DNA of 64,000 nucleotides from Pseudomonadota bacterium. Lineage in GTDB: Bacteria > Chloroflexota > UBA5177 > JAJPKF01. Both the position numbers and the translations under genes were made by a program. Under the pieces are notes generated by a model. It saw only the letters and a list, made by a program, of their open reading frames with translations. It made no database searches and had not been told where the DNA came from. The stretch is taken from positions 9,207 to 73,206 of the forward strand of contig JAJPKF010000024.1 of assembly GCA_021323865.1 (NCBI GenBank), written 5' to 3'. Shown here one piece after another: positions 1 through 64,000 of this stretch (positions are counted from its first letter, which is position 1; each line of letters begins with the position of its first letter).

Positions 1-284
1 GCTGAAATTTTGTGTGGGAGGGAGCCTGCGGCCCCTTCCTCCCCGCCCGACTTTCTTCAAAGCCTAAAGAAAGACTGCCACAAGATAGCAGGAACAGGCG
101 GTCGACGCCAAGCCAACGCGGACGCCTATGGGGCTCGTCTTCTGGTCGACACTCCCCAACTCGGTCAGCGCCTCGAACCGGTGACGACGAGCCATGCGCC
201 GGTGCAGGGCCACGACCCGAATTGGCGACTACTCGTTCTCCCGCACCCGGGAATCCCGCGGCAGCGAATCCGGCCTCGAGGCAG

Positions 285-2108: not shown

Positions 2109-4058
2109 ATGATTCGTAATCTTGCCGCCGGGCTCAGCGCCCTCGGCCTCATCCTGACCGGTTTTGCCTGGCATGGTGTGGCGCCGGTGCAGGCCAAGTC
2201 CAGGCCCGTCAAGCTGGGGCTGTACCACAACGGCTGGGACACCTACTATCGCAGCCCGTTCGGGGCCGCGCCGACCGACTCCAGGGTGACCCTCCGGCTA
2301 CGCAGCGCCACGGTGGTGACGAAGGCGACGCTCTATCTCCAAACGGAGAGCGGCTCGACCACCAAGCTGCCCATGCGTGTCTTCAAGCGAGGCAAGTCGG
2401 CAATCGTCTGGACGGTGACGACCAGACTCCCGTCCAAAGCGACGCAGCTCTCCTACTTCTTCCGGGCTCAGGCAGGCAGCACCGTTCGTTGGTACGGCGA
2501 CAACAGCGGTGTCGGCGAGGGAGGGCCGGGTCAGACCTACGGCAACGCCAACGACGTGGTCACGTACAGCCTCACCGTGTATCTGAAATCCTTCCATACG
2601 CCGGCCTGGATGAGAAATGCCGTGGTCTACCAGATCTTTCCCGACCGCTTTTTCAACGGCAACACCAAGAATGACCCCAAGAACGGTACCCGCTACGGCT
2701 ACATCACGGTGCGGTTTCACAAGCACTGGTCGGACCTTCCCGACCAGCCCTCATGCGGCTGCGACTTCTTCGGCGGCGATCTTCAGGGCATCATCGACAA
2801 GCTCGGCTATCTGCACAAGCTCGGCGTCAACGTCATCTACCTGAACCCCATCTTTCTGGCGCCGTCAAATCACAAATACGACACCAGCAACTTCAAGGCG
2901 ATCGATCCGGAATTCGGGACGCTCAAGACCTTCAAAGCGCTGGTGGGCGCGGCCAAGAAGCTGGGCATTCATCTGATCCTCGACGGCGTCTTTGAGGACA
3001 CGGGCAGCGACAGCGTCTACTTCGACAAGTACAGCCGGTTTCCCCACTCCCTCGGCGCCTACGAGTCCAAGAAGTCGCCGTACTATCCCTGGTACACCTT
3101 CTATCAATGGCCGGATAACTATGCCGACTGGAGCGGCGTGGACAGCCTGCCTCTCCTCAAGGAGAGCAACGCGGTCAAGGACTTTATCTTTCGCAAGAAG
3201 AGCTCGGTGGCCCAGTACTGGCCGGCACAGGGGGCGTCGGGTTGGCGCCTCGACTCTGCCAACAGTCTGAGCAACGGCTACTGGGAGCAGTTCCGAAGCG
3301 CCGTCAAGGCGGCCTATCCGCAGTCGGTGATGATCGGAGAGTACTGGCAGGATGCGCTGCCCTGGCTCATGGGGAACATGTGGGACGGCGTGGTCAACTA
3401 TCAGTTCCGGGAGCCGGTTCTCGATTTCTTCGCCAACGGTCAGGGCGCCCAAACGCCGACGCCCTACGGCGCCACCACCTTCCTCGAGAGCGAGATGGGT
3501 CTCATTGCCGAGTATCCTCGGCCGGCTATCGTCTCCTCGATGAACATCGTCGACTCGCACGATGTGGCGCGCATCCTGACTGACTTGAACGGCAGCAAGG
3601 CGGCACTGCGTCTCGTCGCGCTGTTCCAGATGACCTGGCTGGGCGCGCCCACCGTGTACTACGGTGACGAGACGGGAGTGATGGGCGCCTCCGATCCGGA
3701 CGACCGGCGGACGTTCCCCTGGTCGCACCAGGACAAGGCCCTCGAGCGCTATTACGCCAAGATCATCCATATCCGCCTGGGCCACGGCGCCCTCACAACC
3801 GGCTCGGTCACACCGCTCCTCAGCGCGGACGGCAAGCGATCGCTGGCCTTCCTGCGGCAGTCGGGCAGCCAGCGAATCGTCGTCGCGCTGAACGATAGCC
3901 ACCGTTCTCAGACCCTCAGCATTCCCGTGAGTCAGATCAAGAACGGCACCAAGTTAACCGAGCTGCTGAACGGCGGATCGCATACCGTGAGCAAGGGCCG
4001 GCTGCAGGTCAAGCTGGGGGCGCTCAGCGGCGCGGTTCTCGAGGCGGCCGGCCGGTAG
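2109..4058 (+). CDS. secreted GH13 alpha-amylase family enzyme (neopullulanase/cyclomaltodextrinase-like) with N-terminal beta-sandwich domain
   Basis: ATG 2109 is preceded by GGAGAGAGAG. The signal peptide is MIRNLAAGLSALGLILTGFAWHGVAPVQA. GH13 hallmarks are present: VVYQIFPDRF, GVNVIYLNPIF, GIHLILDGVFEDTG, GWRLDSAN, EYW, VDSHD. The track ORF (1917..) is over-extended upstream. Confidence 0.85.
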   Translation: MIRNLAAGLSALGLILTGFAWHGVAPVQAKSRPVKLGLYHNGWDTYYRSPFGAAPTDSRVTLRLRSATVVTKATLYLQTESGSTTKLPMRVFKRGKSAIVWTVTTRLPSKATQLSYFFRAQAGSTVRWYGDNSGVGEGGPGQTYGNANDVVTYSLTVYLKSFHTPAWMRNAVVYQIFPDRFFNGNTKNDPKNGTRYGYITVRFHKHWSDLPDQPSCGCDFFGGDLQGIIDKLGYLHKLGVNVIYLNPIFLAPSNHKYDTSNFKAIDPEFGTLKTFKALVGAAKKLGIHLILDGVFEDTGSDSVYFDKYSRFPHSLGAYESKKSPYYPWYTFYQWPDNYADWSGVDSLPLLKESNAVKDFIFRKKSSVAQYWPAQGASGWRLDSANSLSNGYWEQFRSAVKAAYPQSVMIGEYWQDALPWLMGNMWDGVVNYQFREPVLDFFANGQGAQTPTPYGATTFLESEMGLIAEYPRPAIVSSMNIVDSHDVARILTDLNGSKAALRLVALFQMTWLGAPTVYYGDETGVMGASDPDDRRTFPWSHQDKALERYYAKIIHIRLGHGALTTGSVTPLLSADGKRSLAFLRQSGSQRIVVALNDSHRSQTLSIPVSQIKNGTKLTELLNGGSHTVSKGRLQVKLGALSGAVLEAAGR

Positions 4059-5949: not shown

Positions 5950-6923
5950 CAGTCAACCTCCTGAAATGCGCCGCTGAGCCGCATGTTGATGGAGCTGAGG
6001 GTTCCGATGATGAAGAAGATCAGGATCCCGTAGGCACAGGCCAGCCCCCACTCGTGCAGTGTGTAGGCGACGCTGTAGGTATAGGTTGGAAGGATATCGG
6101 TTGCGCCCGCGGTGACCGACGTCACGGGCCCGCCACCCGTCAGCAGATAGACAACGCCGAAGTTGTTGAGGTTGTAGGCGAAGGTGGCGATGACCAAGGG
6201 CAGGGAGGCGGTCCGGAGAAGCGGGAACGTCACGCGGAAGAACTTCTGGAACCCGTTGGCGCCGTCGATCTCGGCCGCCTCGTGAACGTCGGGCGGGATG
6301 CTCTGTAAGGCGCCCAAACAGGCGGTCATCATAAACGGGTAGCCCAGCCAGAAGTTGACCAGGAGCACGGAGAAACGGGCCCAGAACGGGTCGCCTAAAA
6401 AGGGGATGCTGGGCACGTGGAAGACGTTCACCAGAATGGTGTTGATCATGCCGCCACCGGTGAAGTTCTGGAGAATTCCGCCCCAGGCGAGGATGGCGAT
6501 GGTGCCCGGGAGGGCCCACGGCACGATGAGGATCGTGCGGTAGAGATTGCGCTCCCACATGTTTTCGTTGTTCAAGAGATAGGCGAGAACCAGTCCGCCG
6601 CCAAAGTTAAGTGCGGTGGTCACGGCAGCGAAGATGACGGTCCACTCGAAGACGCCCAGGAACGCCTGAGGCTGAAAGACCGTGAAGATCTTCACGAAGT
6701 TGTCGAGACCGATGAAGCTGAAGTTGAGGTCGTGGGCCTCACTGTAGTTGGTCATCGACATATAGATGGTGAAGAGGATGGGGAAGAAGCTGGCCACCAC
6801 CATGAAGGCCAGCGACGGAGCGATGTACCCGTACGGATACAGACCGTCGAGGAACCGGCGGCGGCGCCGCACGGGTTTGACCACCGGGGCGTCCGCGGGC
6901 GCGGGCGGGGATATGGCGGCCAT
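5949..6923 (-). CDS. carbohydrate ABC transporter permease (MalF-like)
   Basis: Polytopic membrane protein with the conserved permease loop (DVHEAAEIDGANGFQKFFRVTFPLL). The strong SD AAGGAGGAAG lies upstream of the ATG at 6923. Confidence 0.85.
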   Translation of the reverse strand: MAAISPPAPADAPVVKPVRRRRRFLDGLYPYGYIAPSLAFMVVASFFPILFTIYMSMTNYSEAHDLNFSFIGLDNFVKIFTVFQPQAFLGVFEWTVIFAAVTTALNFGGGLVLAYLLNNENMWERNLYRTILIVPWALPGTIAILAWGGILQNFTGGGMINTILVNVFHVPSIPFLGDPFWARFSVLLVNFWLGYPFMMTACLGALQSIPPDVHEAAEIDGANGFQKFFRVTFPLLRTASLPLVIATFAYNLNNFGVVYLLTGGGPVTSVTAGATDILPTYTYSVAYTLHEWGLACAYGILIFFIIGTLSSINMRLSGAFQEVD

Positions 6924-10696: not shown

Positions 10697-11779
10697 TCAG
10701 TCGACGTAGTCGCGGATCTTCCGCGTGACGGTCGGATGGCGCAGCTTGCGCAGCGCCTCGATCTCGATCTGCCGGATGCGCTCCCGAGTGAGGCCGAAGT
10801 GACCACCCACCTCTTCCAGCGTCTGCGGGCGGCGCCCGGAGAGCCCATATCGAAGGCGGATGATGCCGGCTTCCCGGTCGCTCAGCTTGCCGAGTGCATC
10901 GTCGATGGAGTCGCGCAGGAGGCTCTTGTTGGCCAGCTCTTCCAGGTCGTGTGAGCCGTCCTCGATGAAGTCGCCCAGGAGGCTATCTTCATCGTCTCCG
11001 ACCGGCTTCTCGAGGGAGATCGGGAAGCGAACGGCGCTCTTGATCTCCTCGACCTTCTCGGGACTGACCTCCATCACCGTGGAGATCTCCGCCACCGTCG
11101 GCTCGCGGCCCAGCTCCTGGGAAAGCTGCATGACGGCACGGTTGTACCGGCTGATGCGCTCGTTCATGTGCACCGGGACTCGGATGGTCCGAGACTGGTC
11201 GGCGATGCAGCGGGTCACCGCCTGGCGAATCCACCAGGTGGCATAGGTGGAGAACTTGAAGCCTCGGCGCCAGTCGAACTTCTCGAACGCGCGCATGAGC
11301 CCGGTGTTGCCCTCTTGGATCAGATCCAGCAGGGACATGCCGTGGCCGAGATACTTCTTGGCCACGGAGACCACCAGGCGCAGGTTCGCCTCGATCATCT
11401 GGCGGCGAGACTCCTCACCCTTGCGTTCGTAGTCGCGCAGCACGGCCGGTTCCCAGGTCAGGACTCGTTGGGTTTCGGTCTCGCTCAGGCCATAGTCGTC
11501 GTTCTCGTCCAGCAGCCGGCGCTTGGCCTCTTCCTGGCCGGCCTCGTTCTCTCGGGCAAGCTCGATGAGCCGTTGCAGCTCAATGGACTTTGCCAGCCGG
11601 ACCTCGTCGGCCTTCTTGAGGAGCGGCACGCGACCGATCTCCCGTAGATATAGACGGACGGCGTCGTCGGCTTGTTCGCGCTCCAGCTCGGCATGGTCTT
11701 CGTCGGTGACCTGCCACTCATGAGACTCCTCCTCCAGGAGCGCCTCGTCGGGCACGACATCGTCTACAGGCGCGTACAT
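10697..11779 (-). CDS. RNA polymerase sigma-70 factor, RpoD/SigA (primary-like) family
   Basis: Region 1.2/2 (DLIQEGNTGLMRAFEKFDWRRGFKFSTYATWWIRQAV), region 3 and region 4.2 (LEEVGGHFGLTRERIRQIEIEALRKLRHP) are all present. An acidic N-terminus precedes them. A ~450-bp AT-richer promoter region lies upstream. Confidence 0.9.
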   Translation of the reverse strand: MYAPVDDVVPDEALLEEESHEWQVTDEDHAELEREQADDAVRLYLREIGRVPLLKKADEVRLAKSIELQRLIELARENEAGQEEAKRRLLDENDDYGLSETETQRVLTWEPAVLRDYERKGEESRRQMIEANLRLVVSVAKKYLGHGMSLLDLIQEGNTGLMRAFEKFDWRRGFKFSTYATWWIRQAVTRCIADQSRTIRVPVHMNERISRYNRAVMQLSQELGREPTVAEISTVMEVSPEKVEEIKSAVRFPISLEKPVGDDEDSLLGDFIEDGSHDLEELANKSLLRDSIDDALGKLSDREAGIIRLRYGLSGRRPQTLEEVGGHFGLTRERIRQIEIEALRKLRHPTVTRKIRDYVD

Positions 11780-12243
11780 GTTTCACCCCTCTCCTGTAAC
11801 GTTCGAAAGGCCACAGAGGGGCTGCCCTCTATGGCCTGCGGATACGGCACAAGAACACGAAATGTGATCTGAATTGTTCCCTACACCGATATCTTAACAC
11901 AACATAACGTTGTTGGCAAGGGGAAACAATTATACACATGCGAGCTGCCGGCAACGGATTTGTTTGCCGGGGGGCCAACGGCACGAATGCCGACTCGCTG
12001 CCTGGACATCGTTTCCCTCGCGGACGGCGAGCCTCTGATAAGGCTTTATGGGCCAGCCTCAAACACTGTGTCATGGAACCATTGGATGCACGTGTGACGC
12101 CTGCAAAATGTGGGCCTGCGAACATCGGGGCCGCCTGAGACCGGTGTACATTGTGATGCGCATCACACTGAAGGAGGCGAGCGGCGCACCCACCATCCGC
12201 CGTCTCGGAGACGGCCGACCGCCTCCAGACCAACCTCGAGCTG

Positions 12244-13143
12244 GTGATACTCGGGAAGAGCGAGATCATCCGCCACCTCCTGGTCGCTTTGTTCTGCGGC
12301 GGTCACGTGCTCTTCGAGGACGTTCCGGGAACCGGCAAGACCACCCTCGCCCGAGCCCTTGCCCGCTCCATCGACTGTGACTTCAAGCGGGTGCAGTTCG
12401 CGCCCGACCTGCTCCCCTCAGATGTCACGGGCACCAACTTCTTCAACATGAAGTCGAGTGAGTTCGAGTTCCGACCCGGTCCGGTCCTGACCAATGTGCT
12501 GCTGGCCGATGAGATCAACCGGGCCACGCCCCGTACGCAGGCAAGCCTCCTGGAGGCCATGGAGGAGCGGCAGGTGACGGTCGACGGCGTGAGCCGGCCG
12601 CTTCCGCGACCATTCATGGTGCTGGCGACGGAGAACCCCATCGAGCTGGAGGGAACGTTTCCACTCCCCGAAGCGCAGGTGGATCGTTTCTTCATGCAGC
12701 TGTCCCTCGGCTATCCCGACCTCGCCTCGGAGAGCGAGATGCTGCTGTCGCAGGAGCGGGTGCACCCACTGGACTCTCTGCAGCCGGTCATCACGGGAAC
12801 TGAGGTGGCCGATCTCGAGCAGTCGGTTCGCGCGGTCACGGTTCACGACGACATTCGCGACTACATCCTGCAGCTCGTGCGGAGCACGCGTGAGCGCACG
12901 GAGCTGTCACTGGGCGCCAGCCCCCGCGGCTCGCTGGCGCTCTACCGAGCCACCCAGGCCCTGGCCGCCATGTCTGGTCGCGACTATGTCCTTCCCGACG
13001 ACGTCAAAGCCATGGCCGTGGAGGTGCTGGCCCACCGTCTGATGCCCTCCGCGGAGGGACGGCTGAAGCGTATCGAGCCGGCTGCCGTCCTGCACCAGAT
13101 CCTGTCCGATGTCGAGGCGCCGGTCGAGCCGCTCGCCTCCTAA
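12244..13143 (+). CDS. MoxR-family AAA+ ATPase (5' end apparently frameshifted)
   Basis: Walker A is GGHVLFEDVPGTGKTT and Walker B is LLADEINRA, in a MoxR-type arrangement. The conserved N-terminal helix (...TADRLQTNLELVILGK) is encoded in-frame upstream of GTG 12244 without a start codon. ATG 12156 in the +2 frame could supply the N-terminus if a 1-nt indel exists near 12205-12212. Confidence 0.85.
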   Translation: MILGKSEIIRHLLVALFCGGHVLFEDVPGTGKTTLARALARSIDCDFKRVQFAPDLLPSDVTGTNFFNMKSSEFEFRPGPVLTNVLLADEINRATPRTQASLLEAMEERQVTVDGVSRPLPRPFMVLATENPIELEGTFPLPEAQVDRFFMQLSLGYPDLASESEMLLSQERVHPLDSLQPVITGTEVADLEQSVRAVTVHDDIRDYILQLVRSTRERTELSLGASPRGSLALYRATQALAAMSGRDYVLPDDVKAMAVEVLAHRLMPSAEGRLKRIEPAAVLHQILSDVEAPVEPLAS

Positions 13144-13149
13144 GCCGCG

Positions 13150-14457
13150 ATGGCCACCGTCCTGCTCGACCTCGGCGCCGGCTTCCTGCTCATCCTGGCG
13201 CCCCTGCTGCTGTTCCTCTGGTACTGGAACAACCGAGAGCTGACCACCCGCGAGTGGGCGTTACTGTGCTTCGTAATCCTTGCCGGTGGCGTCCTGGCGC
13301 GCATCGCCGTGGTGGCCCTCTTGGCGGCCCTGATCCTCGTTGGGATCGGCGTCGCGTGGCTGTGGAACCGCGTGATCCTTACCGACGTGGACTACTCGCG
13401 GTCGTTTGCCCAGACCCACCTCTTTCCCGGCGAGTCGACCACCGTCACCTGGACCTTCCGGAACGACAAGCCGCTGCCGGTCAGCTGGCTGCGCTGGCAG
13501 GAGGGCGTGCCGATTCACCCCTTCGGGGCCCTTCGACATGGGGAGGGCCTGCAGATCGAGGATATCGACATCCGCATCATCCTTGACGGCGGCGCCGACG
13601 GCATCGACGAGGTCACGTCGATCGGCGGCTTTCAGACGCTGATCAAGACCGCTCGAATCTCGGCGCTTCGGCGCGGGTATTACCGCTTCGGGCCCACGCA
13701 GTGGGACGCCAGCGACGTCCTCGGGCTCTACCGAACGACCAAACGGTTTGAGGCCGACTCCGCGCTGACCGTCTATCCGCGATTGTTCTCGCCGGAACAG
13801 CTTCAGCTACCGACCGAGGCCATTCTGGGCGATCTCCGGCGACGCAGCTTTGTGGAGGACCCGAGCTGGTATCGCGGCGCCCGCGACTACCGCTCGAGTG
13901 ATCCCATGAAGACCATCGACTGGCTGGCGACGGCCCGCACGCGCCGTATGCAGGTCAAGGTCTTCGAGCCGACCGTACATCCCAAGCTTATGATCCTGGC
14001 AAACCTACACGCCTTCGAGCGGATCTCTCGAGGCGTGATCACCGAGTACATGGAGGATGTGATCAGCGCCGCCGGATCCATCGCCCGCTGGGGTCTGGAG
14101 ACCGGTTTCGAGGTGGGACTCCACTCCAACGGGGCCCTGCCGGGCAGCCACATGCCGCTGCGCATCCCGCCCTCGGCCCGTCCCGAGCAGCTGTTTCTCA
14201 TCCTCGACTACCTGGCCAGGATCATGTTGATCGTCGACCGAAACGTCGAGGATCTCATTCGTCGGGACGTGCAGGACCTCCCGCACGGCAGCAGCCTGGT
14301 GATCTGCACCAACGTCATTACCCAGGGGATGACCTCGGTGCTGACGGACATCGGCCGCCATCGCAGGGTCACCGTGCTCCTCATCGACAATGATACGCGG
14401 TTCAGCATTCCCAATGTGACCGTCACCCAGCTTCAGACGGGACGCAGGGCGGCCTGA
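13150..14457 (+). CDS. DUF58 domain protein (MoxR-associated, vWA-like)
   Basis: Two N-terminal TM helices and the DUF58 signature YRGARDYRSSDPMKTIDWLATARTRRMQVKVFEPT. It lies immediately downstream of moxR. Confidence 0.85.
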   Translation: MATVLLDLGAGFLLILAPLLLFLWYWNNRELTTREWALLCFVILAGGVLARIAVVALLAALILVGIGVAWLWNRVILTDVDYSRSFAQTHLFPGESTTVTWTFRNDKPLPVSWLRWQEGVPIHPFGALRHGEGLQIEDIDIRIILDGGADGIDEVTSIGGFQTLIKTARISALRRGYYRFGPTQWDASDVLGLYRTTKRFEADSALTVYPRLFSPEQLQLPTEAILGDLRRRSFVEDPSWYRGARDYRSSDPMKTIDWLATARTRRMQVKVFEPTVHPKLMILANLHAFERISRGVITEYMEDVISAAGSIARWGLETGFEVGLHSNGALPGSHMPLRIPPSARPEQLFLILDYLARIMLIVDRNVEDLIRRDVQDLPHGSSLVICTNVITQGMTSVLTDIGRHRRVTVLLIDNDTRFSIPNVTVTQLQTGRRAA

Positions 14458-15836
14458 TGACCATAGTCACCTCCTTCGTCCGGTTCCTGTTGCGCACCGC
14501 CTGGCTCCTGCCGGTGGCATGGATGTACGGAGGCAACCTGGCCGGCTCGATGGGAGTCGTTCTCCCCGTGATGGTGCTGATCGCGTTTGGGACCGCGCTG
14601 ATCTTCCTCTGGCCACTGCTGTCCACGCTCGTCAGACGACTGGGACTGAGCCGTTTCTCAACGGCGTTTGTCATCGGGCTCGGCGTCCTGGGAGGCACCA
14701 TCGTCGCGGTAGGGAACATCTCGTTCGGCGTTCACACGAATGCAGGCACGTATGCCTTGGAATGGCTGCTGCTCCTGGTCATCGGCAGCGTCGCGTTCTC
14801 CTCCGTGGTCGGCGAGCAGACCTATCCGGGTATCAGTCGCGACTTCATCCTCGGCACCCTCGGGTTGCTCCTGGTGGTGGCCTTCTCCTACACGCTGGGG
14901 AGCCGGAGTCAGATGCACTTCGGCGCCCTCGTCTACGCCGGGTTCATCGGCTATGTGCTCCTTGGTGTGGCGGGTTTGGGTTTTGCCCGGCGGTACGCTC
15001 CAGACGAGTTCGCCACGGACATGCGCAGCGGCAGCCTCGAGCCGGACTGGCTGCTCACGGTCGTCCTCCTGATCGGCGGCCTCGGCATTGCCAGCCTGGT
15101 CTTCGCCCAGCTCTTTGCCTTCGACATCATGGGCGCCATTGGCCATCTCACCCAGCCGCTGCAGGACCTGGCCATCCAGGGCCTCAAGGTCGTTGCGACG
15201 TCAATCGCGGCATTCCTCGTCTGGCTCATCCACATCCTGGGCATCAAGCCGCGGCACCACGCCGTCCATCCCACGGTCCGACGTGCGCCGCAGCGAAACC
15301 CGATTCCCAGCCGGCATCTCCATTCCAACCGGGTGCCCTCGTGGATCCTGCTGACGCTCGAGGCGCTGCTGCTGGCCGCCGTGGCCATTGCCGCTCTTTC
15401 TGTCCTCACCCTCATCTTCCGCTCGCTCCTGGGCCTGCGCCTTTCCACGCTCAAAGGCGAGAGGCGCGTGTCGGAGTGGTCATGGCGGAAGATGACGGGG
15501 TGGCTGTTCCGGCAGGGCCAAACACAGCTGCGGAGTCTGCTTCCCGAGCACGGTCTCCGGCTTCCCCGGCGCCGCAGGCTGGATACGGTACGCGACGTAT
15601 ATCGGGCGTTTCTGCACCTTGGTGGGGAGCGCGGCCGCGCGCGTGTGGCAGCGGAAACAGGGCTCGAATACAGCCTCGACGTCGAGGCTCGCTGGCCCGC
15701 CAGCGAGGAGGGGCTTGACCGCTTGAATGCGATCTACATGGCAGAGCGGTATGGATTGAGGGAGCCCGACGCGGAACGAGTGGCCGCCGCGAGGGCGGAG
15801 CTGGAGCGCTTCGACGAGATCTCCCGGGAGCCCTAG
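14457..15836 (+). CDS. polytopic membrane protein with C-terminal DUF4129-like domain (third gene of MoxR module)
   Basis: About 8 TM helices, then a cytoplasmic C-terminus (TVRDVYRAFLHLGGERG...LDRLNAIYMAERYGLREPDAERVAAARAELERF) resembling DUF4129. Its start overlaps the DUF58 stop (TGATG). Confidence 0.6.
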   Translation: MTIVTSFVRFLLRTAWLLPVAWMYGGNLAGSMGVVLPVMVLIAFGTALIFLWPLLSTLVRRLGLSRFSTAFVIGLGVLGGTIVAVGNISFGVHTNAGTYALEWLLLLVIGSVAFSSVVGEQTYPGISRDFILGTLGLLLVVAFSYTLGSRSQMHFGALVYAGFIGYVLLGVAGLGFARRYAPDEFATDMRSGSLEPDWLLTVVLLIGGLGIASLVFAQLFAFDIMGAIGHLTQPLQDLAIQGLKVVATSIAAFLVWLIHILGIKPRHHAVHPTVRRAPQRNPIPSRHLHSNRVPSWILLTLEALLLAAVAIAALSVLTLIFRSLLGLRLSTLKGERRVSEWSWRKMTGWLFRQGQTQLRSLLPEHGLRLPRRRRLDTVRDVYRAFLHLGGERGRARVAAETGLEYSLDVEARWPASEEGLDRLNAIYMAERYGLREPDAERVAAARAELERFDEISREP

Positions 15837-22882: not shown

Positions 22883-24061
22883 CTAGCGGACGGCCGTCGC
22901 CCGGCTGTCGAGCGCGTTCAATGCCGCGTCCAGATCGGCGAGCAGGTCCTCGACGTCCTCAATGCCGACCGAGAGCCGCACGAGGCCGTCGCTGATGCCG
23001 GCCGCCTCGCGGGCTTCCTTGGGGACCGAGGCGTGAGTCATGACGGCCGGGTGATCGGCCAGCGACTCGACGCCGCCCAGGCTCTCCGCCAGGGCGAAGA
23101 GCTGCAACGACCGCATGAATCGCGAAGCCCCCTCTAAGCCACCCGCGACCTCGACGGTAACGATGCCGCCAAAGCCGGACATCTGGCGCGCGGCCACGTC
23201 ATGGCCGGGGTGTTCCTCCAGGCCCGGATACAACACCCGAGTCACCACGTCCGTTCGCCCGGCCAGGTAGCGGGCCACCGCCGCGGCGTTTTGCTGGTGG
23301 CGCTCCATGCGCACGGCGAGTGTCTTCAGGCCGCGCAACAGCAGCCAGCAATCCATGGGGCCGGGTACGGCGCCGATGGCGTTTTGGTGAAACTTGAGCC
23401 GGTCGTGCACCTCGACATCGGCCAGGCTGACCGTTCCCATGACCAGGTCGCTGTGACCGCCGAGGTACTTGGTCGCGCTGTACAGGGCGATATCGGCGCC
23501 CAGCTCCAGCGGCCGCTGGAGGTAGGGACTGGCGAAGGTGTTGTCCACGGCCAAAAGGGCGCCATGAGCGTGGCCAATCTCGGCCATGTGCCGGATATCG
23601 ACGATCTTGAGCAGGGGATTGGTGGGCGACTCGATCCAGATCAGCCGGGTCTCGGGACACACGACCCGCTCGACCTCCTCCGGTCGAGTGGCGTCAACGA
23701 AATCGAAGCGCAGGCCGTACTTCCGATACACGCGCTCGAACAGCCGGTAGGTGCCGCCGTAGCAGTCGTCGGAAACGATCACGTGATCGCCGGGACCGAA
23801 CAGCGCCATCACCGTGGCTTCAGCCGCCATGCCCGAAGCGAACGCGAGCGCCCCGGCGGCCCCGTCGAGCGACGCCAGCGCGGTCTGGAGGGCAGATCTG
23901 GTGGGATTGTCGGTGCGCGAGTACTCGTAGCCCCGGTGCTGCCCGATGTCGGCTTGGGCATAGGTCGAGGTCTGATAGATGGGCACGGTCACCGAGCCGG
24001 TTTGGGGGTCAGGCTCCTGACCGGCATGGATCGCGCGAGTGCTGAACCCTTCGGGTTTCAC
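22883..24061 (-). CDS. cystathionine gamma-lyase / gamma-synthase (Cys/Met-metabolism PLP enzyme)
   Basis: PLP-lysine context YSATKYLGGHSDL and the family blocks IWIESPTNPLL and AVDNTFASPY. The GTG start at 24061 overlaps the CBS stop (GTGA coupling). The track ORF is extended upstream through the CBS gene in another frame. Confidence 0.85.
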   Translation of the reverse strand: MKPEGFSTRAIHAGQEPDPQTGSVTVPIYQTSTYAQADIGQHRGYEYSRTDNPTRSALQTALASLDGAAGALAFASGMAAEATVMALFGPGDHVIVSDDCYGGTYRLFERVYRKYGLRFDFVDATRPEEVERVVCPETRLIWIESPTNPLLKIVDIRHMAEIGHAHGALLAVDNTFASPYLQRPLELGADIALYSATKYLGGHSDLVMGTVSLADVEVHDRLKFHQNAIGAVPGPMDCWLLLRGLKTLAVRMERHQQNAAAVARYLAGRTDVVTRVLYPGLEEHPGHDVAARQMSGFGGIVTVEVAGGLEGASRFMRSLQLFALAESLGGVESLADHPAVMTHASVPKEAREAAGISDGLVRLSVGIEDVEDLLADLDAALNALDSRATAVR

Positions 24062-51071: not shown

Positions 51072-52577
51072 TCATCCAAGCCTTTGGGCCGCGCCCGCAG
51101 CCAGCAGGAGGGCCCGCGCCTTGTTCATGCTCTCTTGGTACTCACGCTCGGGTACGGAGTCGGCCACGATCCCGGCCCCGGCCTGGACGTGGATCTGGCC
51201 TCCCTTGATCACCGCGGTCCGTATGGTGATGGCAAACTCCATGTCGCCCGAGGGCGTCAGGAAGCCGACAGCGCCTCCGTAGGCCCCGCGTCGCTCCGGC
51301 TCCAGCTCGGCGATGATCTCCATCGCTCGAATCTTGGGCGCGCCTGAGAGGGTGCCGGCGGGGAAGGTGGCCCACAGTGCGTCGTCGCAGCTTCGATCGG
51401 ATCTGAGCGTGCCGGTGACATCGGAGACGATGTGCATGACGTGAGAGAAGCGCTCGACCTGCATCAGACTCTCAACCCTCACGGTGCCGGGAACGCAAAC
51501 CCGTCCGAGGTCGTTGCGGGCCAGATCCACCAGCATGATGTGCTCGGCGCGCTCCTTCTCGTCCGCCAGCAGCTCGGCGGCCAGCGCCTGGTCTTCCTCC
51601 TCGTCGCGACCGCGATGTCGCGTCCCGGCGATGGGACGGGTGGTGGCGGTCGATCCCTCCATCTGGAGCAGTAGCTCGGGCGATGCCCCAACCACTTGAT
51701 GGTCGCCGAACTCCAGGAAATACATGTAGGGCGAGGGGCTGACCGTTCGCAGCGCTCGATACAGGCCAAACGACTCACCACGCAGGGGGATCCGAAGCCG
51801 CTGGGAGAGGACGACCTGAAGGATGTCGCCGGCCGCGATGTAGGCCTTCGCCTCGCGGACCATCTCCTCGAACGCCTGAGGAGACACGTTGGATCGGGGC
51901 TGAACGAAGCCCCGACTGTCGGATGTCGAGCCGCCCGCAACGTACTCATCGGGAGAGACCGAGGTCCGCAAGCGTTCCACGAGTGCCTCGATGCGAGACA
52001 CCGCAGCCAGGAATTCCTCCTCCCGATGGTCGTCGAGGGGCATGTGGCTGATGACCCTAATGGTGTGCCGGACGTGATCGAAGACCAGGAATGTCTCGAC
52101 GCCCATGAAGAGACCGTCGGGCAACCCCAGTGAGTCGCGGTCAGGCACGGGAACGCGCTCCACCCGCCCGACCGCCTCGTACGAGAGGTAACCGATGGCG
52201 CCGCCGTCGAACCGCGTCTCCTCGGAGGGGAAGATGGTGCGCATGGCCGCCACCTTGGCGCGCAGCTCCGCGAAGGCAGCCGGAGCGACGCCCGAGGCAA
52301 CGTTTCCCGGAGGTGTGTCCGGAGCCTGCTGCGGCATCTCCCATCGCCAGGTGCCGTTTCCCAAAAAAGAGTAGCGACCAACACGCTCGCCTCCTTCCAC
52401 ACTCTCGAGCAGGAAGCTGAGCGAACCTTGGCGTACCTTCAGAAACGCCGACACCGGAGTGTCGAGGTCGGCAAGAATCTCGCGCTGAATGGCCACCACG
52501 CCGCCCGAGGGAAGATCCCGAATCTCGTCGAAGGCAGGAAAGTACCCGGTGATCCGCGAGGCGGCTCTCGCCTTCAC
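51072..52577 (-). CDS. trpE: anthranilate synthase component I
   Basis: Chorismate-binding family blocks (GAVGFLTPSGDMEFAITIRT, LSGAPKIRAMEII) and the N-terminal Trp-feedback LESVEGG motif. Confidence 0.9.
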   Translation of the reverse strand: MKARAASRITGYFPAFDEIRDLPSGGVVAIQREILADLDTPVSAFLKVRQGSLSFLLESVEGGERVGRYSFLGNGTWRWEMPQQAPDTPPGNVASGVAPAAFAELRAKVAAMRTIFPSEETRFDGGAIGYLSYEAVGRVERVPVPDRDSLGLPDGLFMGVETFLVFDHVRHTIRVISHMPLDDHREEEFLAAVSRIEALVERLRTSVSPDEYVAGGSTSDSRGFVQPRSNVSPQAFEEMVREAKAYIAAGDILQVVLSQRLRIPLRGESFGLYRALRTVSPSPYMYFLEFGDHQVVGASPELLLQMEGSTATTRPIAGTRHRGRDEEEDQALAAELLADEKERAEHIMLVDLARNDLGRVCVPGTVRVESLMQVERFSHVMHIVSDVTGTLRSDRSCDDALWATFPAGTLSGAPKIRAMEIIAELEPERRGAYGGAVGFLTPSGDMEFAITIRTAVIKGGQIHVQAGAGIVADSVPEREYQESMNKARALLLAAGAAQRLG

Positions 52578-61725: not shown

Positions 61726-62151
61726 ATGTCTCGAGCGCAGGTCGGAGCCCTCTATCGTGAGAGCCGGGCCGGAAGGATTCCAGACGGCCGTGGTGACGGG
61801 CTCGCGTTGGTCTTGCCGGGAACCGGCATCTGCCGGCCAATGGCGGCCTTCATCCGGCTGACTTCATGGCAGGGCAAGATCTTCAACCGCCGACATGGCG
61901 AGCTGGTCAATCGAGTCACACCCTTCGGTCTGCCGGCGATACGGGCCCGGGTCTATACAGGACCGAGCCGATTCGACGGTCGCGAGAGCATCATCCTCGA
62001 CTATTCCCAGACGTCTTGGGTCGCCCGTTGGGTACGTGACGAGATCCGCGAGGTCTCAGCCGGCGTCTATCTCGGTTTCGCCTATGCCCTCGGCATCCGG
62101 GTCATCACCTTCGCGCTTCGTTTCCCAGCAAAGGCTGCGTCCGAGGACTAA
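61726..62151 (+). CDS. hypothetical protein
   Basis: ~141 aa from ATG 61726 (GGGGACG upstream). No recognisable domain. It overlaps the end of the convergent HD-GYP gene by 4 nt. Confidence 0.45.
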   Translation: MSRAQVGALYRESRAGRIPDGRGDGLALVLPGTGICRPMAAFIRLTSWQGKIFNRRHGELVNRVTPFGLPAIRARVYTGPSRFDGRESIILDYSQTSWVARWVRDEIREVSAGVYLGFAYALGIRVITFALRFPAKAASED

Positions 62152-63509
62152 GCCGCCGAGCTGAGCGGAGGACTGACCGTCTCGGTGTGCTCCCGGGACA
62201 TCATGAGCACGAAGGCGAATGCCAGCAGGGGATCGAAGTGCGATCCCGCGTCCGCGGTGATGCGCAGGAGGGCCTCCTGGGTCGAGAGCCCACGCCGGTA
62301 GGGCCGGTCGGAGGTCATGGCGTCGAATGCATCGGCAAGGGCAAATATGCGGGCGGCGAGCGGGATGTCTTCCCCCGAGAGCCGGTCGGGATAGCCCTCA
62401 CCGTCCCATCGCTCGTGATGATGGCGGATGACCGGCAGCGCGTCCTGCAGGAACGAAATGTTCTTGATCATCTCGTATCCGATGACCGGATGGCGGCGCA
62501 TGAGCTCCCACTCTTGCTCGGTGAGAGGGCCCGGCTTGCGCAGGACGGCATCGGGCACGCCGATCTTGCCGATGTCGTGCAGCTCGGCGCCGTCGCGGAG
62601 TCCCCGAAGCGACTCCTCGTCAATGCCGATGTGCTCTGCCAGTCGTGTCGCGAGCGCCGTCACGCGTTTGGAATGGCTCTCCGTCTGAGAGTCACGGGCG
62701 TCGACGGCCGCCGCGAGGGACATGATGGTTTCGGAATAGCTGGCCTCCAGACGTGCCTGCTCGGCTTGGAGCTGCCCTTGCTGCCGGATGATGGTGCGGG
62801 ATCCGGCCCGAACGATGCCGAAGAGGAGGAGATACAACAGCAGCAAACCCCCGCCAATAACCAGGTAGGTAATGTGCTGCAGATCGGCAATCTGGGCCGC
62901 GAGGGGCCCGTAGGTCTCGTAGATCTCGAACGCGCCCACAACAGGGCCATTGCCGAAGCGGATGGGAATGTAGACCTGCATCAGCTGCCCAAAGCGTCGG
63001 TCCGCCTGGTTTTCCTCGGCCGAGAGGTTGGACACATTGGCGAAATCGTGGCCGGCCAGCGCCTGCGCCACATCGTCCTCGATCGGGAATCGCTTGCCCA
63101 CGATGCTGCGATCCGTTGAGTACACCACCTGGCCCTGGGGGTTCCAGACCTTGACCACCACGATGCGGTGGGTCAGCACATCAGACCGGACCAGCCGATC
63201 AAACTGTGCCAAGCGCCACCCCGACATGGCTCGATGGAGCTCCCAGGGATGGAGGTGGTTGACAAGGGGCCCTTGGAGGCTGTCGAAGGCCGCTGATTCG
63301 GCCGCCTTGAGGGCGGAGGATTGCATAGCCGACCCCACCTGCTGGGCCGTCCCCAGACCAATCAGAACGAACACGGCCAGGCTGGTCACGGCAAACCGCT
63401 GCAGCAGTGTGAACCGACGCAGCGCCGAGCGCAGCCGGTCTCCGCCCCGGAGCAGAAGCTTCATTGCGCCATCAATATGCGGCCCTCCTTTGGGGGGCGC
63501 GTTAGCCAA
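62148..63509 (-). CDS. HD-GYP domain phosphodiesterase with N-terminal two-TM periplasmic sensor domain
   Basis: HD...HDIGKIGVP and HHERWDGEGYP (HD-GYP signature). Two TM helices flank a ~150-aa extracytoplasmic region. Confidence 0.8.
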   Translation of the reverse strand: MANAPPKGGPHIDGAMKLLLRGGDRLRSALRRFTLLQRFAVTSLAVFVLIGLGTAQQVGSAMQSSALKAAESAAFDSLQGPLVNHLHPWELHRAMSGWRLAQFDRLVRSDVLTHRIVVVKVWNPQGQVVYSTDRSIVGKRFPIEDDVAQALAGHDFANVSNLSAEENQADRRFGQLMQVYIPIRFGNGPVVGAFEIYETYGPLAAQIADLQHITYLVIGGGLLLLYLLLFGIVRAGSRTIIRQQGQLQAEQARLEASYSETIMSLAAAVDARDSQTESHSKRVTALATRLAEHIGIDEESLRGLRDGAELHDIGKIGVPDAVLRKPGPLTEQEWELMRRHPVIGYEMIKNISFLQDALPVIRHHHERWDGEGYPDRLSGEDIPLAARIFALADAFDAMTSDRPYRRGLSTQEALLRITADAGSHFDPLLAFAFVLMMSREHTETVSPPLSSAA

Positions 63510-63635
63510 TTTGGCGGTGTCGCCCAGCGTCCCGATGAAGCTCTCGAACCGCAGGCGTTACCTGCGGACTATGATGAGGGCAACATGGTCGGCTGGTCGG
63601 CTGCGTACCCCCGGACATCGCCGGTAGGCATCTCG

Positions 63636-64000
63636 TGAGCACCATCACAGAGATCGAGGCGGGCATTGGGACCGCGGAATCGCTCGACCCGCGGGCCGCC
63701 ATCAGTGTTCGGGGTCTGCGCAAGACCTACGGATCGTTCGAGGCCGTCTCAGGAGTCGACTTCGACATCCAGCCCGGCGAGATCGTGGCCTTCCTGGGGC
63801 CGAATGGGGCGGGCAAGACCACGACCGTCGAGATACTCGAGGGATATCGTGAGCGCACCGCCGGAGCGGTTCGAGTTCTGGGCGAGGACCCGGCGACCGC
63901 TCCCCTCCTCTGGCGCGATCGCATCGGCGTGGTGCTGCAGGATTCCGAGATCGAGCCGGACCTTACCGCCCGCGAGTGCGTCGAGCTGTACGCCGGCTAT
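63636..64000 (+). CDS. ABC transporter ATP-binding protein (5' partial, runs off window)
   Basis: GTG 63636. Q-loop-preceding region with Walker [10 protein letters not shown] and typical LRKTYGSFEAVSGVDFDI. No stop before the window end. Confidence 0.7.

Follow-up and report, generated by a model that had tools for sequence, protein, structure and literature searches.

The window analysed here, a stretch of 64,000 nucleotides (nt) from contig JAJPKF010000024.1 of a metagenome assembly (GCA_021323865.1) that is probably from the Chloroflexota, contains a moxR gene whose conserved N-terminal helix is encoded without a start codon. The gene, for a MoxR AAA+ ATPase, heads an operon of the order moxR-DUF58-DUF4129 and is divergent from a sigma-70 family gene, as assigned with Pfam profiles on the open reading frames (ORFs) of the window:

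10697 to 11779, minus strand: sigma-70 family gene of 360 amino acids (aa), with Pfam Sigma70_r1_2/r2/r3/r4; the upstream neighbour of moxR, syntenic in all orthologous loci
12244 to 13143, plus strand: MoxR AAA+ ATPase ORF as called by JGI and by NCBI/ENA from GTG 12244, 299 aa, its C-terminus EAPVEPLAS intact and conserved
13150 to 14457, plus strand: DUF58 gene (Pfam DUF58), beginning 6 nt past the moxR stop, syntenic in all orthologs
14457 to 15836, plus strand: membrane protein with C-terminal DUF4129 (Pfam DUF4129), its ATG overlapping the DUF58 stop (ATGA), syntenic in all orthologs

The MoxR protein consists of an AAA_3 domain (E = 4e-63, full profile, 1-131) followed by AAA_lid_2 (E = 2.5e-23), and its catalytic motifs are complete, with Walker A and B, sensor and arginine residues in place; the DUF58 and DUF4129 genes are intact as well. 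As in other MoxR AAA+ operons, where moxR is accompanied by a DUF58/vWA-type partner and a membrane protein, the window shows the same domain architecture and the same downstream genes, the DUF58/vWA-type partner following at 6 nt in an arrangement that is syntenic in 5 orthologs, and the window MoxR scores 250 bits against the solved MoxR structure 2R44 of the Protein Data Bank (PDB). Unlike its relatives, the window genome encodes the conserved N-terminal helix without a start codon, and the existing calls begin at the V of the motif VILGK. The region upstream of that V contains the following features:

12152 to 12167, no strand: palindrome TGTGATGCGCATCACA, of the form TGTGA-N6-TCACA, overlapping the last base of a -10-like hexamer and the predicted transcription start
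12156 to 12158, plus strand: ATG in frame 0, with no Shine-Dalgarno upstream, AAGGAGG 15 nt downstream and the -10-like hexamer 4 nt before it
12169 to 12171, plus strand: TGA in the MoxR frame, the upstream bound of the MoxR open frame; a second in-frame TGA lies at 12154-12156
12171 to 12177, plus strand: Shine-Dalgarno AAGGAGG, a full site at the orthologous position, 66 nt before VIxGK and 3 nt past the palindrome
12184 to 12189, plus strand: GCG-CAC, codons -20 and -19, the expected start position, 6 and 9 nt after the Shine-Dalgarno
12187 to 12243, plus strand: coding stretch of the MoxR N-terminal helix, HPPSAVSETADRLQTNLEL, lacking a start codon of its own and homologous to ortholog N-termini back to V 12202
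12195 to 12197, plus strand: ATC in frame 0, the first near-cognate triplet past the Shine-Dalgarno (17 nt), in frame only with one base removed at about 12198
12200 to 12214, no strand: CCGTCTC-g-GAGACGG, 7-bp inverted arms around an indel site proposed earlier, within coding sequence and not conserved

In the frame of MoxR, the TGA at 12169-12171 is followed by 24 sense codons (RRRAAHPPSAVSETADRLQTNLEL) and then by GTG 12244 (VILGK...), and no ATG, GTG or TTG is present in that frame between TGA 12169 and GTG 12244, which bears out the statement of the first-pass annotation of this DNA that the MoxR N-terminal helix has no start codon. The segment 12178-12194 lacks T altogether and thus contains no ATG, GTG, TTG, CTG or ATN in any frame; no CTG, ATT, ATC or ATA stands in frame 4-12 nt past the Shine-Dalgarno, and the only in-frame near-cognates of the stretch are ACG 12211 and CTG 12241. 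Real gene starts in the window have the same kind of Shine-Dalgarno, followed by ATG or GTG at 4-10 nt, and GTG 12244 has no Shine-Dalgarno. A reading of TGA as a sense codon is ruled out, as neighbouring genes terminate at TGA and the MoxR frame contains two of these triplets ahead of the Shine-Dalgarno. The other elements described in that annotation are also there: TGTGATGCGCATCACA at 12152-12167 is its own reverse complement over a perfect 16 bp and lies over ATG 12156, ahead of AAGGAGG, and the ATG at 12156-12158 inside it opens a frame-0 ORF to TGA 12378-12380 (75 codons including the stop), in a frame that is already open from ATG 12048, farther upstream.

Loci that combine the sigma gene with moxR-DUF58-DUF4129 were collected from five further species, represented by L002 (also L004 and L005), L003 (also L209), L086, L087 and L088; the same 360-aa sigma gene is found in L001-L003, L086-L088 and L209. 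The MoxR proteins of these five orthologs are 72-75% identical to that of the window. Six syntenic loci, the window included, were compared with start codons counted back from the conserved VIxGK, and the five ortholog starts lie at codons -17 to -22, 6-10 nt past a Shine-Dalgarno:

L087: start ATG, codon -17, Shine-Dalgarno GAGGGA
L088: start GTG, codon -22, Shine-Dalgarno: -
L086: start TTG, codon -19, Shine-Dalgarno AGGGGA
L002: start ATC, codon -19 (L002 2908), Shine-Dalgarno GAGG 9 nt upstream
L003: start ATC, codon -19 (L003 2866), Shine-Dalgarno GGGGGAG 8 nt upstream

A canonical start is lacking in the right place in L002 and L003, and gene callers have shortened both proteins, to 287 and 266 aa. 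In L002 the sole canonical candidate is a TTG at -38, which lacks a Shine-Dalgarno, and in L209, an independent copy from a metagenome-assembled genome (MAG) with its ATC at L209 1464-1466, NCBI annotates a CTG at -7 (HEV3309569.1). Three assemblies for the species of L002, and two for that of L003, agree in showing the ATC arrangement unchanged; for further orthologs, known from database protein calls only, the start is placed 16-19 codons before VIxGK. At codon -19 the window carries CAC (12187), exactly 9 nt past AAGGAGG and aligned under the ATC codons of L002 and L003, and codon -20 is GCG. Its Shine-Dalgarno is the strongest among the six orthologs. A near-cognate start after the Shine-Dalgarno is seen in L002, L003 and L209 (ATC) and in a further MoxR locus, L168 (CTG). 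In Escherichia coli, infC and pcnB have AUU starts, and the infC-type arrangement holds expression low and sensitive to initiation factor 3 (IF3). L002 and L003 (also L209) share with these genes a Shine-Dalgarno, a gap of 8-9 nt and then ATC, which is the infC-type arrangement, whereas the window retains not even a near-cognate codon past its Shine-Dalgarno. As a separate observation, the MoxR proteins of L003 and L209 (P0022 and P0121, the same species-level protein) differ in that the JGI copy is without 7 residues, LALYRAS, in the sensor-2 region; this absence in the L003 copy stems either from a genuine deletion allele or from faulty assembly.

When the six start regions are aligned with MAFFT, the window, L002 and L003 are gap-free from the Shine-Dalgarno to VIxGK, a distance of 65 nt in L003 and 66 nt in the other two, and no length difference that is not divisible by 3 separates the window from L002. 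The alignment to orthologous moxR loci that the first-pass annotation had called for thus leaves an indel unsupported. Ortholog N-termini share a hydrophobic residue at -14 within a motif [D/E/G]-[V/I]-[A/G] at -15 to -13, and the MoxR frame of the window encodes A-V-S there (12199-12207, with V at 12202), upstream of the junction at 12205-12212 where a 1-nt frameshift had been proposed to join ATG 12156 to MoxR. In BLASTP searches against 80-residue homolog N-termini, the frame-1 peptide is matched at E values as low as 4e-6 in alignments that extend upstream to V 12202, and the frame-0 peptide (MGQ...MRITLKEASGAPTIRRL) shows no similarity to MoxR N-termini (best E 1.3-3.5). The arithmetic of the proposal holds, in that removal of one base does join frame 0 to the MoxR frame. 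Nevertheless, as the frame-0 peptide has no homologs, AVS is kept upstream of the junction, ATG 12156 cannot make use of a Shine-Dalgarno that comes after it, and the supposedly textbook N-terminus would be a 29-residue leader without counterpart, compared with 16-22 residues in orthologs, this frameshift is rejected. ATG 12156 is also discarded as a moxR start in its own right, given a peptide without homolog, no ribosome-binding site and a position upstream of the predicted transcription start; it would be a by-product of the palindrome sequence. The inverted arms at 12200-12214 are probably due to chance, the orthologs differing in sequence there.

The comparison points to loss of the moxR start codon by base substitution and not by frameshift, a reading to which we assign a probability of about 0.5. 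The simplest route would be a T-to-C change turning GTG into GCG at 12184-12186, where such a GTG would have stood 6 nt past the Shine-Dalgarno; alternatively, ATC may have become CAC at 12187-12189, the position of the ortholog ATC and TTG starts. Some points weigh against this reading. The databases searched hold no sequence closer than about 75% protein identity, and with no closer ancestral sequence the mutational route is not reconstructable, while the ATC-to-CAC route needs two changes. The GC content at third codon positions (GC3) is also high in frame 0 over 12156-12206, so that composition does not discriminate between the frames there, and the intact operon, the normal substitution pattern and the perfect Shine-Dalgarno would equally fit full translation by unseen means. 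A scan of genome representatives for close relatives gave 60% identity at best, the window genome itself not being among the matches, and a metagenome scan with the pattern VIxGK-N57-EDVPGTGKT returned 120 loci, mostly at 45-60%, none closer than the known orthologs.

A background survey of 198 MoxR loci from the genome and metagenome scans places the window among few cases. At or upstream of codon -10, no canonical start stands in frame in 5 of the 198 (the window, L001, which is the same genome, L003, L072 and L168), and in the window alone is the Shine-Dalgarno not followed even by a near-cognate codon. L168 (about 100-230, reverse strand) has GAGGAGG, 5 nt and then CTG at codon -21, and lacks a canonical start; L072, a Clostridiales MAG (about 2900-3000), has AAGGAG, 8 nt and then ATA, with an in-frame TAG within the MoxR N-terminal helix. 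Judging from these sequences, non-canonical starts past a strong Shine-Dalgarno recur in the MoxR family.

The body of the window gene has 6 singleton changes at otherwise invariant columns of the six-ortholog alignment, compared with 5-13 in the orthologs, a pattern according to which moxR is neither under relaxed constraint nor fast-evolving; on this evidence, either the start was lost recently or expression of the gene persists. In an AlphaFold2 model with a predicted local distance difference test score (pLDDT) of 92.6, residues 3-20 form a confidently predicted helix (pLDDT 87-96) extending from codon -17 to within VILGK; in the solved MoxR 2R44, 26 residues stand ahead of the equivalent motif. 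GTG 12244 would be the sole canonical in-frame start left, and initiation there would, according to the model, remove helix alpha-0 entirely and give a MoxR protein without it. The moxR allele would then be a recent null or weak one, or one with very low expression, and under the best model moxR would end up truncated, expressed very weakly or silent.

Upstream of the Shine-Dalgarno, two further features bear on how the gene may be transcribed:

12145 to 12152, plus strand: TGTACATT, TG plus the -10-like hexamer TACATT, the putative moxR core promoter, assigned by conservation and consensus only
12066 to 12097, plus strand: TGTCA-N21-TGACG block with an invariant CATTGGA core, the only block kept in all six intergenic regions besides the sigma-gene promoter/leader (alignment A2)

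The octamer TGTAnnAT stands exactly 18 nt upstream of the Shine-Dalgarno in 4 of the 6 loci (the window, L002 2869-2876, L003 2825-2832 and L086 2964-2971) and is missing from L087 and L088; L003 also has TTGTCA 17 nt upstream of the hexamer. This octamer is probably the moxR core promoter, and the transcription start would then be predicted at about 12158-12160, at the palindrome centre, so that the left arm of the palindrome and ATG 12156 would lie outside the mRNA. Weighing against the assignment, the -10 hexamer matches TATAAT at 4 of 6 positions and the window has no -35; moreover, a scan with the sigma-70 consensus found no promoter on the plus strand, only a minus-strand one for the sigma gene, plus a weak TTGGAT-16-CAAAAT. 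The conserved block at 12066-12097, which ends in TGAC(G/A) in alignment A2 and reads in L003 and L087 as an 11-codon ORF (MSLSxxHWTxM and stop) that is not kept in the others, may be a regulatory site for moxR. On the side of the sigma-70 gene, the leader contains a conserved hairpin-like block AAGGCCACAGAGG...ATGGCCTG (window 11809-11840), a conserved perfect minus-strand TATAAT (plus-strand ATTATA) lies upstream at 11930-11935, and a second minus-strand promoter, TTGCCA-17-TAAGAT, is predicted at 11919-11891.

In the proposed order of elements, a promoter would be followed by an operator over the transcription start, a short leader, the Shine-Dalgarno, the destroyed start codon and the intact MoxR frame. 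The palindrome would be a DNA-level feature separate from the loss of the start: spanning -8 to +8, the position of a repressor, it would allow a bound dimer over the -10 and the transcription start to block RNA polymerase. CRP/FNR proteins are known to repress from sites over the transcription start. The palindrome agrees with the CRP/FNR-type consensus TGTGA-N6-TCACA (PMC3105977, PMC5758884) at 10 of 10 specified bases, a match expected 0.03 times per 64-kb window and present in 3 of 100 shuffles. With the operators of E. coli CRP, Mycobacterium tuberculosis CRP and Cmr, and Corynebacterium glutamicum GlxR it shares both half-sites, the 6-bp spacing and a location in a predicted promoter region; unlike these, it has no ortholog conservation or regulon support. 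The full 16-bp symmetry and the inner TGCGCA with its central CpG are reminiscent of LacI-family operators.

The odds that this candidate operator functions as such are about even, and the function would be lineage-specific if real. That the palindrome is a chance or non-regulatory sequence falls only a little short of even odds. A 16-bp palindrome as such is not unusual, the window containing 4 perfect palindromes of at least 16 bp compared with about 1.9 in shuffles; the other perfect ones of 16-18 bp are CGTGAAGATCTTCACG at 6681-6696 (inside the coding sequence of an ABC permease), AGCCTCGACGTCGAGGCT at 15672-15689 and CTCCAGCGGCCGCTGGAG at 23504-23521. Four results weigh against an operator: no site with up to 2 mismatches occurs in the five orthologous intergenic regions, so conservation of the palindrome is lacking; about 190 moxR loci show no enrichment of CRP-like sites upstream of the gene; a Pfam scan of ten window ORFs, an HD-GYP gene and nine others of 152-274 aa, revealed no CRP-family gene; and no convincing second site was found within the 64-kb window. 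Against chance stand the rarity of a 10/10 match to a very well-known operator consensus, its intergenic location exactly over the inferred -10 and transcription start, and an exception among the roughly 190 loci, L044, a Tepidiformales MAG that also belongs to the Chloroflexota, in which a perfect site TGTGACCCAATTCACA (2814-2829) lies in the divergent intergenic region upstream of moxR, about 90 nt upstream of a perfect extended -10 TGTTATAAT (2896-2904).

The suggestion of an operator for a dimeric regulator is credible in its perfect CRP/FNR consensus, and is left without ortholog conservation or a cognate regulator in the window ORFs scanned. The scan for further palindrome copies, run in the window and the ortholog intergenic regions, yielded in the window a single other site with up to one mismatch to the CRP consensus, CGTGAGCACCATCACA at 63634-63649, a count at chance level. 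Located in the intergenic region beside the HD-GYP gene, this site overlaps the GTG at which an ABC-transporter ATPase gene probably begins. GTGA-N6-TCAC occurs 4 times in the window, with 0.96 expected, and a CRP regulon within the window was considered and rejected, as two of these sites lie in permease coding sequence and one on a start codon; the positions of these other matches, within or at the start of coding sequences, fit a chance origin.

As for the start codon itself, an unlikely alternative to substitution is a 1-nt insertion just upstream of the helix, either pseudogenising or an assembly error shared by the records, with the ancestral start in frame 0 at ATC 12195 or ATG 12156. 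Removal of C12198 would bring ATC 12195 in frame at -16 and give M-AVSETADRLQ..., MAVSETADRLQTNLEL-VILGK, an N-terminus of the same length as those of P0018 and P0003; in L002, too, an ATC stands in frame at -16 and, with the GGT-GTC after it, recalls ATC-C-GCC-GTC of the window, and GC3 in frame 0 is coding-like to about 12206. However, ATC 12195 lies 17 nt from the Shine-Dalgarno, beyond the 6-10 nt of ortholog starts, the gap-free alignment described above speaks against a net indel, and two assemblies have the same sequence. The variant through ATG 12156 has in addition a start located before the Shine-Dalgarno and 4 nt past the -10-like hexamer, with a peptide that has no homolog, and a junction at 12205-12212 would destroy the conserved V at -14.

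It is likewise unlikely that full-length MoxR is still made, the strong Shine-Dalgarno driving a low level of initiator-tRNA initiation on GCG 12184 or CAC 12187, 6-9 nt downstream. To our knowledge, no natural bacterial gene depends on a non-near-cognate start codon. Such initiation would be consistent with the orthologs already using weak or non-canonical starts (ATC twice, TTG and GTG), with the GAGGAGG-CTG and AAGGAG-ATA arrangements of other MoxR loci, with the strength of the window Shine-Dalgarno among the six orthologs, and with the constrained appearance of the gene and of the helix-coding stretch, although a recent loss would account for conservation of the latter just as well. Relative to AUG, initiation in E. 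coli reaches 1-2% on AUC and 0.01-1% on many non-near-cognates (10.1101/063800). The yield expected from GCG or CAC is thus 100- to 10,000-fold under that of AUG, and full-length synthesis would be minute, though not strictly impossible. A slimmer chance is given to a gene that is not broken at all, in which starts have become ever weaker within the ortholog group (from GTG/TTG to AUC to none) and a low initiation on GCG or CAC is functional, possibly tuned by IF3 or stress and combined with repression at a CRP-type promoter. Elsewhere in the window, the HD-GYP gene (62148-63509, minus strand) has, in the region 63470-63509, a strong Shine-Dalgarno AAAGGAGGG with an in-frame ATT 6 nt later; an ATG in frame comes next, at 18 nt from the Shine-Dalgarno, and the first TTG of the ORF lies upstream of it, and this gene may be another with a non-canonical start in the window genome.

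Less probable still is an error of the deposited consensus at 12184-12189, by sequencing or assembly or through fixation of a minority allele, in an organism that does have a start codon. The source is a metagenome-assembled contig that is known here as a consensus only. On the other hand, the separately assembled JGI contig Ga0070739_10000146 (L001) is identical to the window over 12140-12260 and differs from it by 1 base in 6.9 kb, inside the sigma gene, a single-nucleotide difference by which it is not a copy of the same record. The same 299-aa MoxR call is made by JGI and NCBI/ENA on three contigs of 154-163 kb, so that a third contig bears it as well; the site contains no long homopolymer, and substitution errors common to independent assemblies are unlikely. 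With the second assembly identical here, the random sequencing indel entertained in the first-pass annotation is also unlikely and is not borne out.

Programmed frameshifting, either +1 from the frame of ATG 12156 or -1 from that of GTG 12110 with AAGGAGG as stimulator, as in prfB and dnaX, is very improbable: the Shine-Dalgarno is internal to both alternative-frame ORFs, all three frames are open here and CCC-A at 12189-12192 could in principle permit a +1 slip of tRNA-Pro, but a 0-frame stop or rare codon is lacking at the shift site, the 11 nt from Shine-Dalgarno to CCC do not fit the 3-nt rule of prfB, 12171-12215 contains no X-XXY-YYZ heptamer and no CUU-UGA-type site 3 nt past AAGGAGG, neither upstream ORF has a ribosome-binding site, the two-ORF arrangement is missing in L002, L003 and L086-L088, and local RNA structure is unexceptional. 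The window thus shares with prfB and dnaX a Shine-Dalgarno-like sequence inside overlapping open frames; unlike them, it has no slippery sequence, stall codon or other stall signal, its spacing is wrong and the arrangement is not conserved.

An RNA hairpin that occludes initiation, the other role suggested earlier for the palindrome, finds no support either. The fold of 12130-12260 is no more stable than shuffles (z = -0.69), and the left arm is probably not transcribed. Taken together, the folds of 12130-12260 and of the start regions of all six orthologs do not exceed shuffles in stability (z = -0.7, -0.8, -0.7, +2.5, -0.1, -1.5 and +1.4), and a GGAGGCG/CGCCUCC pairing is not conserved in the orthologs; sequestration of the Shine-Dalgarno is ruled out by these unexceptional folds and the unconserved pairing. 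A search of 11700-12350 against Rfam gave no match at E up to 1. One further repeat touches the ribosome-binding region:

13128 to 13141, no strand: GCCGCTCGCCTCCT, at the end of moxR (last codons and stop), over 14 nt the exact reverse complement of AGGAGGCGAGCGGC (12172-12185) in the ribosome-binding region

Inverted pairs of at least 14 nt within 1.2 kb number 3 in the window and about 1 in shuffles. The moxR repeat is not conserved in the orthologs, save for an 8-nt version in L002, and could be due to chance, to long-range Shine-Dalgarno pairing or to a templated mutation of which it would be a trace. Long-range pairing between the ribosome-binding site and the moxR 3' end was rejected, as an internal segment pairs equally well (-47.0 compared with -46.6 kcal/mol) and the pairing is not conserved. 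The 14-mer GAAGGAGGCGAGCG of the ribosome-binding region recurs at 52383-52396 (minus strand), in a different reading frame within a probable trpE (51072-52577), and is taken as a coincidence.

Taken as a whole, the locus is a fresh instance of known phenomena, namely start-codon loss or non-canonical starts and a CRP-type operator, within otherwise ordinary biology. A mildly unusual detail is that a perfect ribosome-binding site is left with no codon for initiation, and this among orthologs in which AUC is used repeatedly. For annotation, where the locus matters most, both public calls (299 aa from GTG 12244) cut off a conserved helix, and, since gene finders ignore ATC starts, the calls for the two nearest ortholog species are wrong as well; the position of the Shine-Dalgarno together with an ortholog alignment can locate such non-canonical starts. 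If the start-less moxR were in fact fully expressed, it would provide a rare example from nature of a gene initiated on a non-near-cognate codon. Moreover, the perfect CRP-type site over the predicted transcription start offers a testable entry to regulation by CRP-family proteins in an uncultured Chloroflexota lineage.

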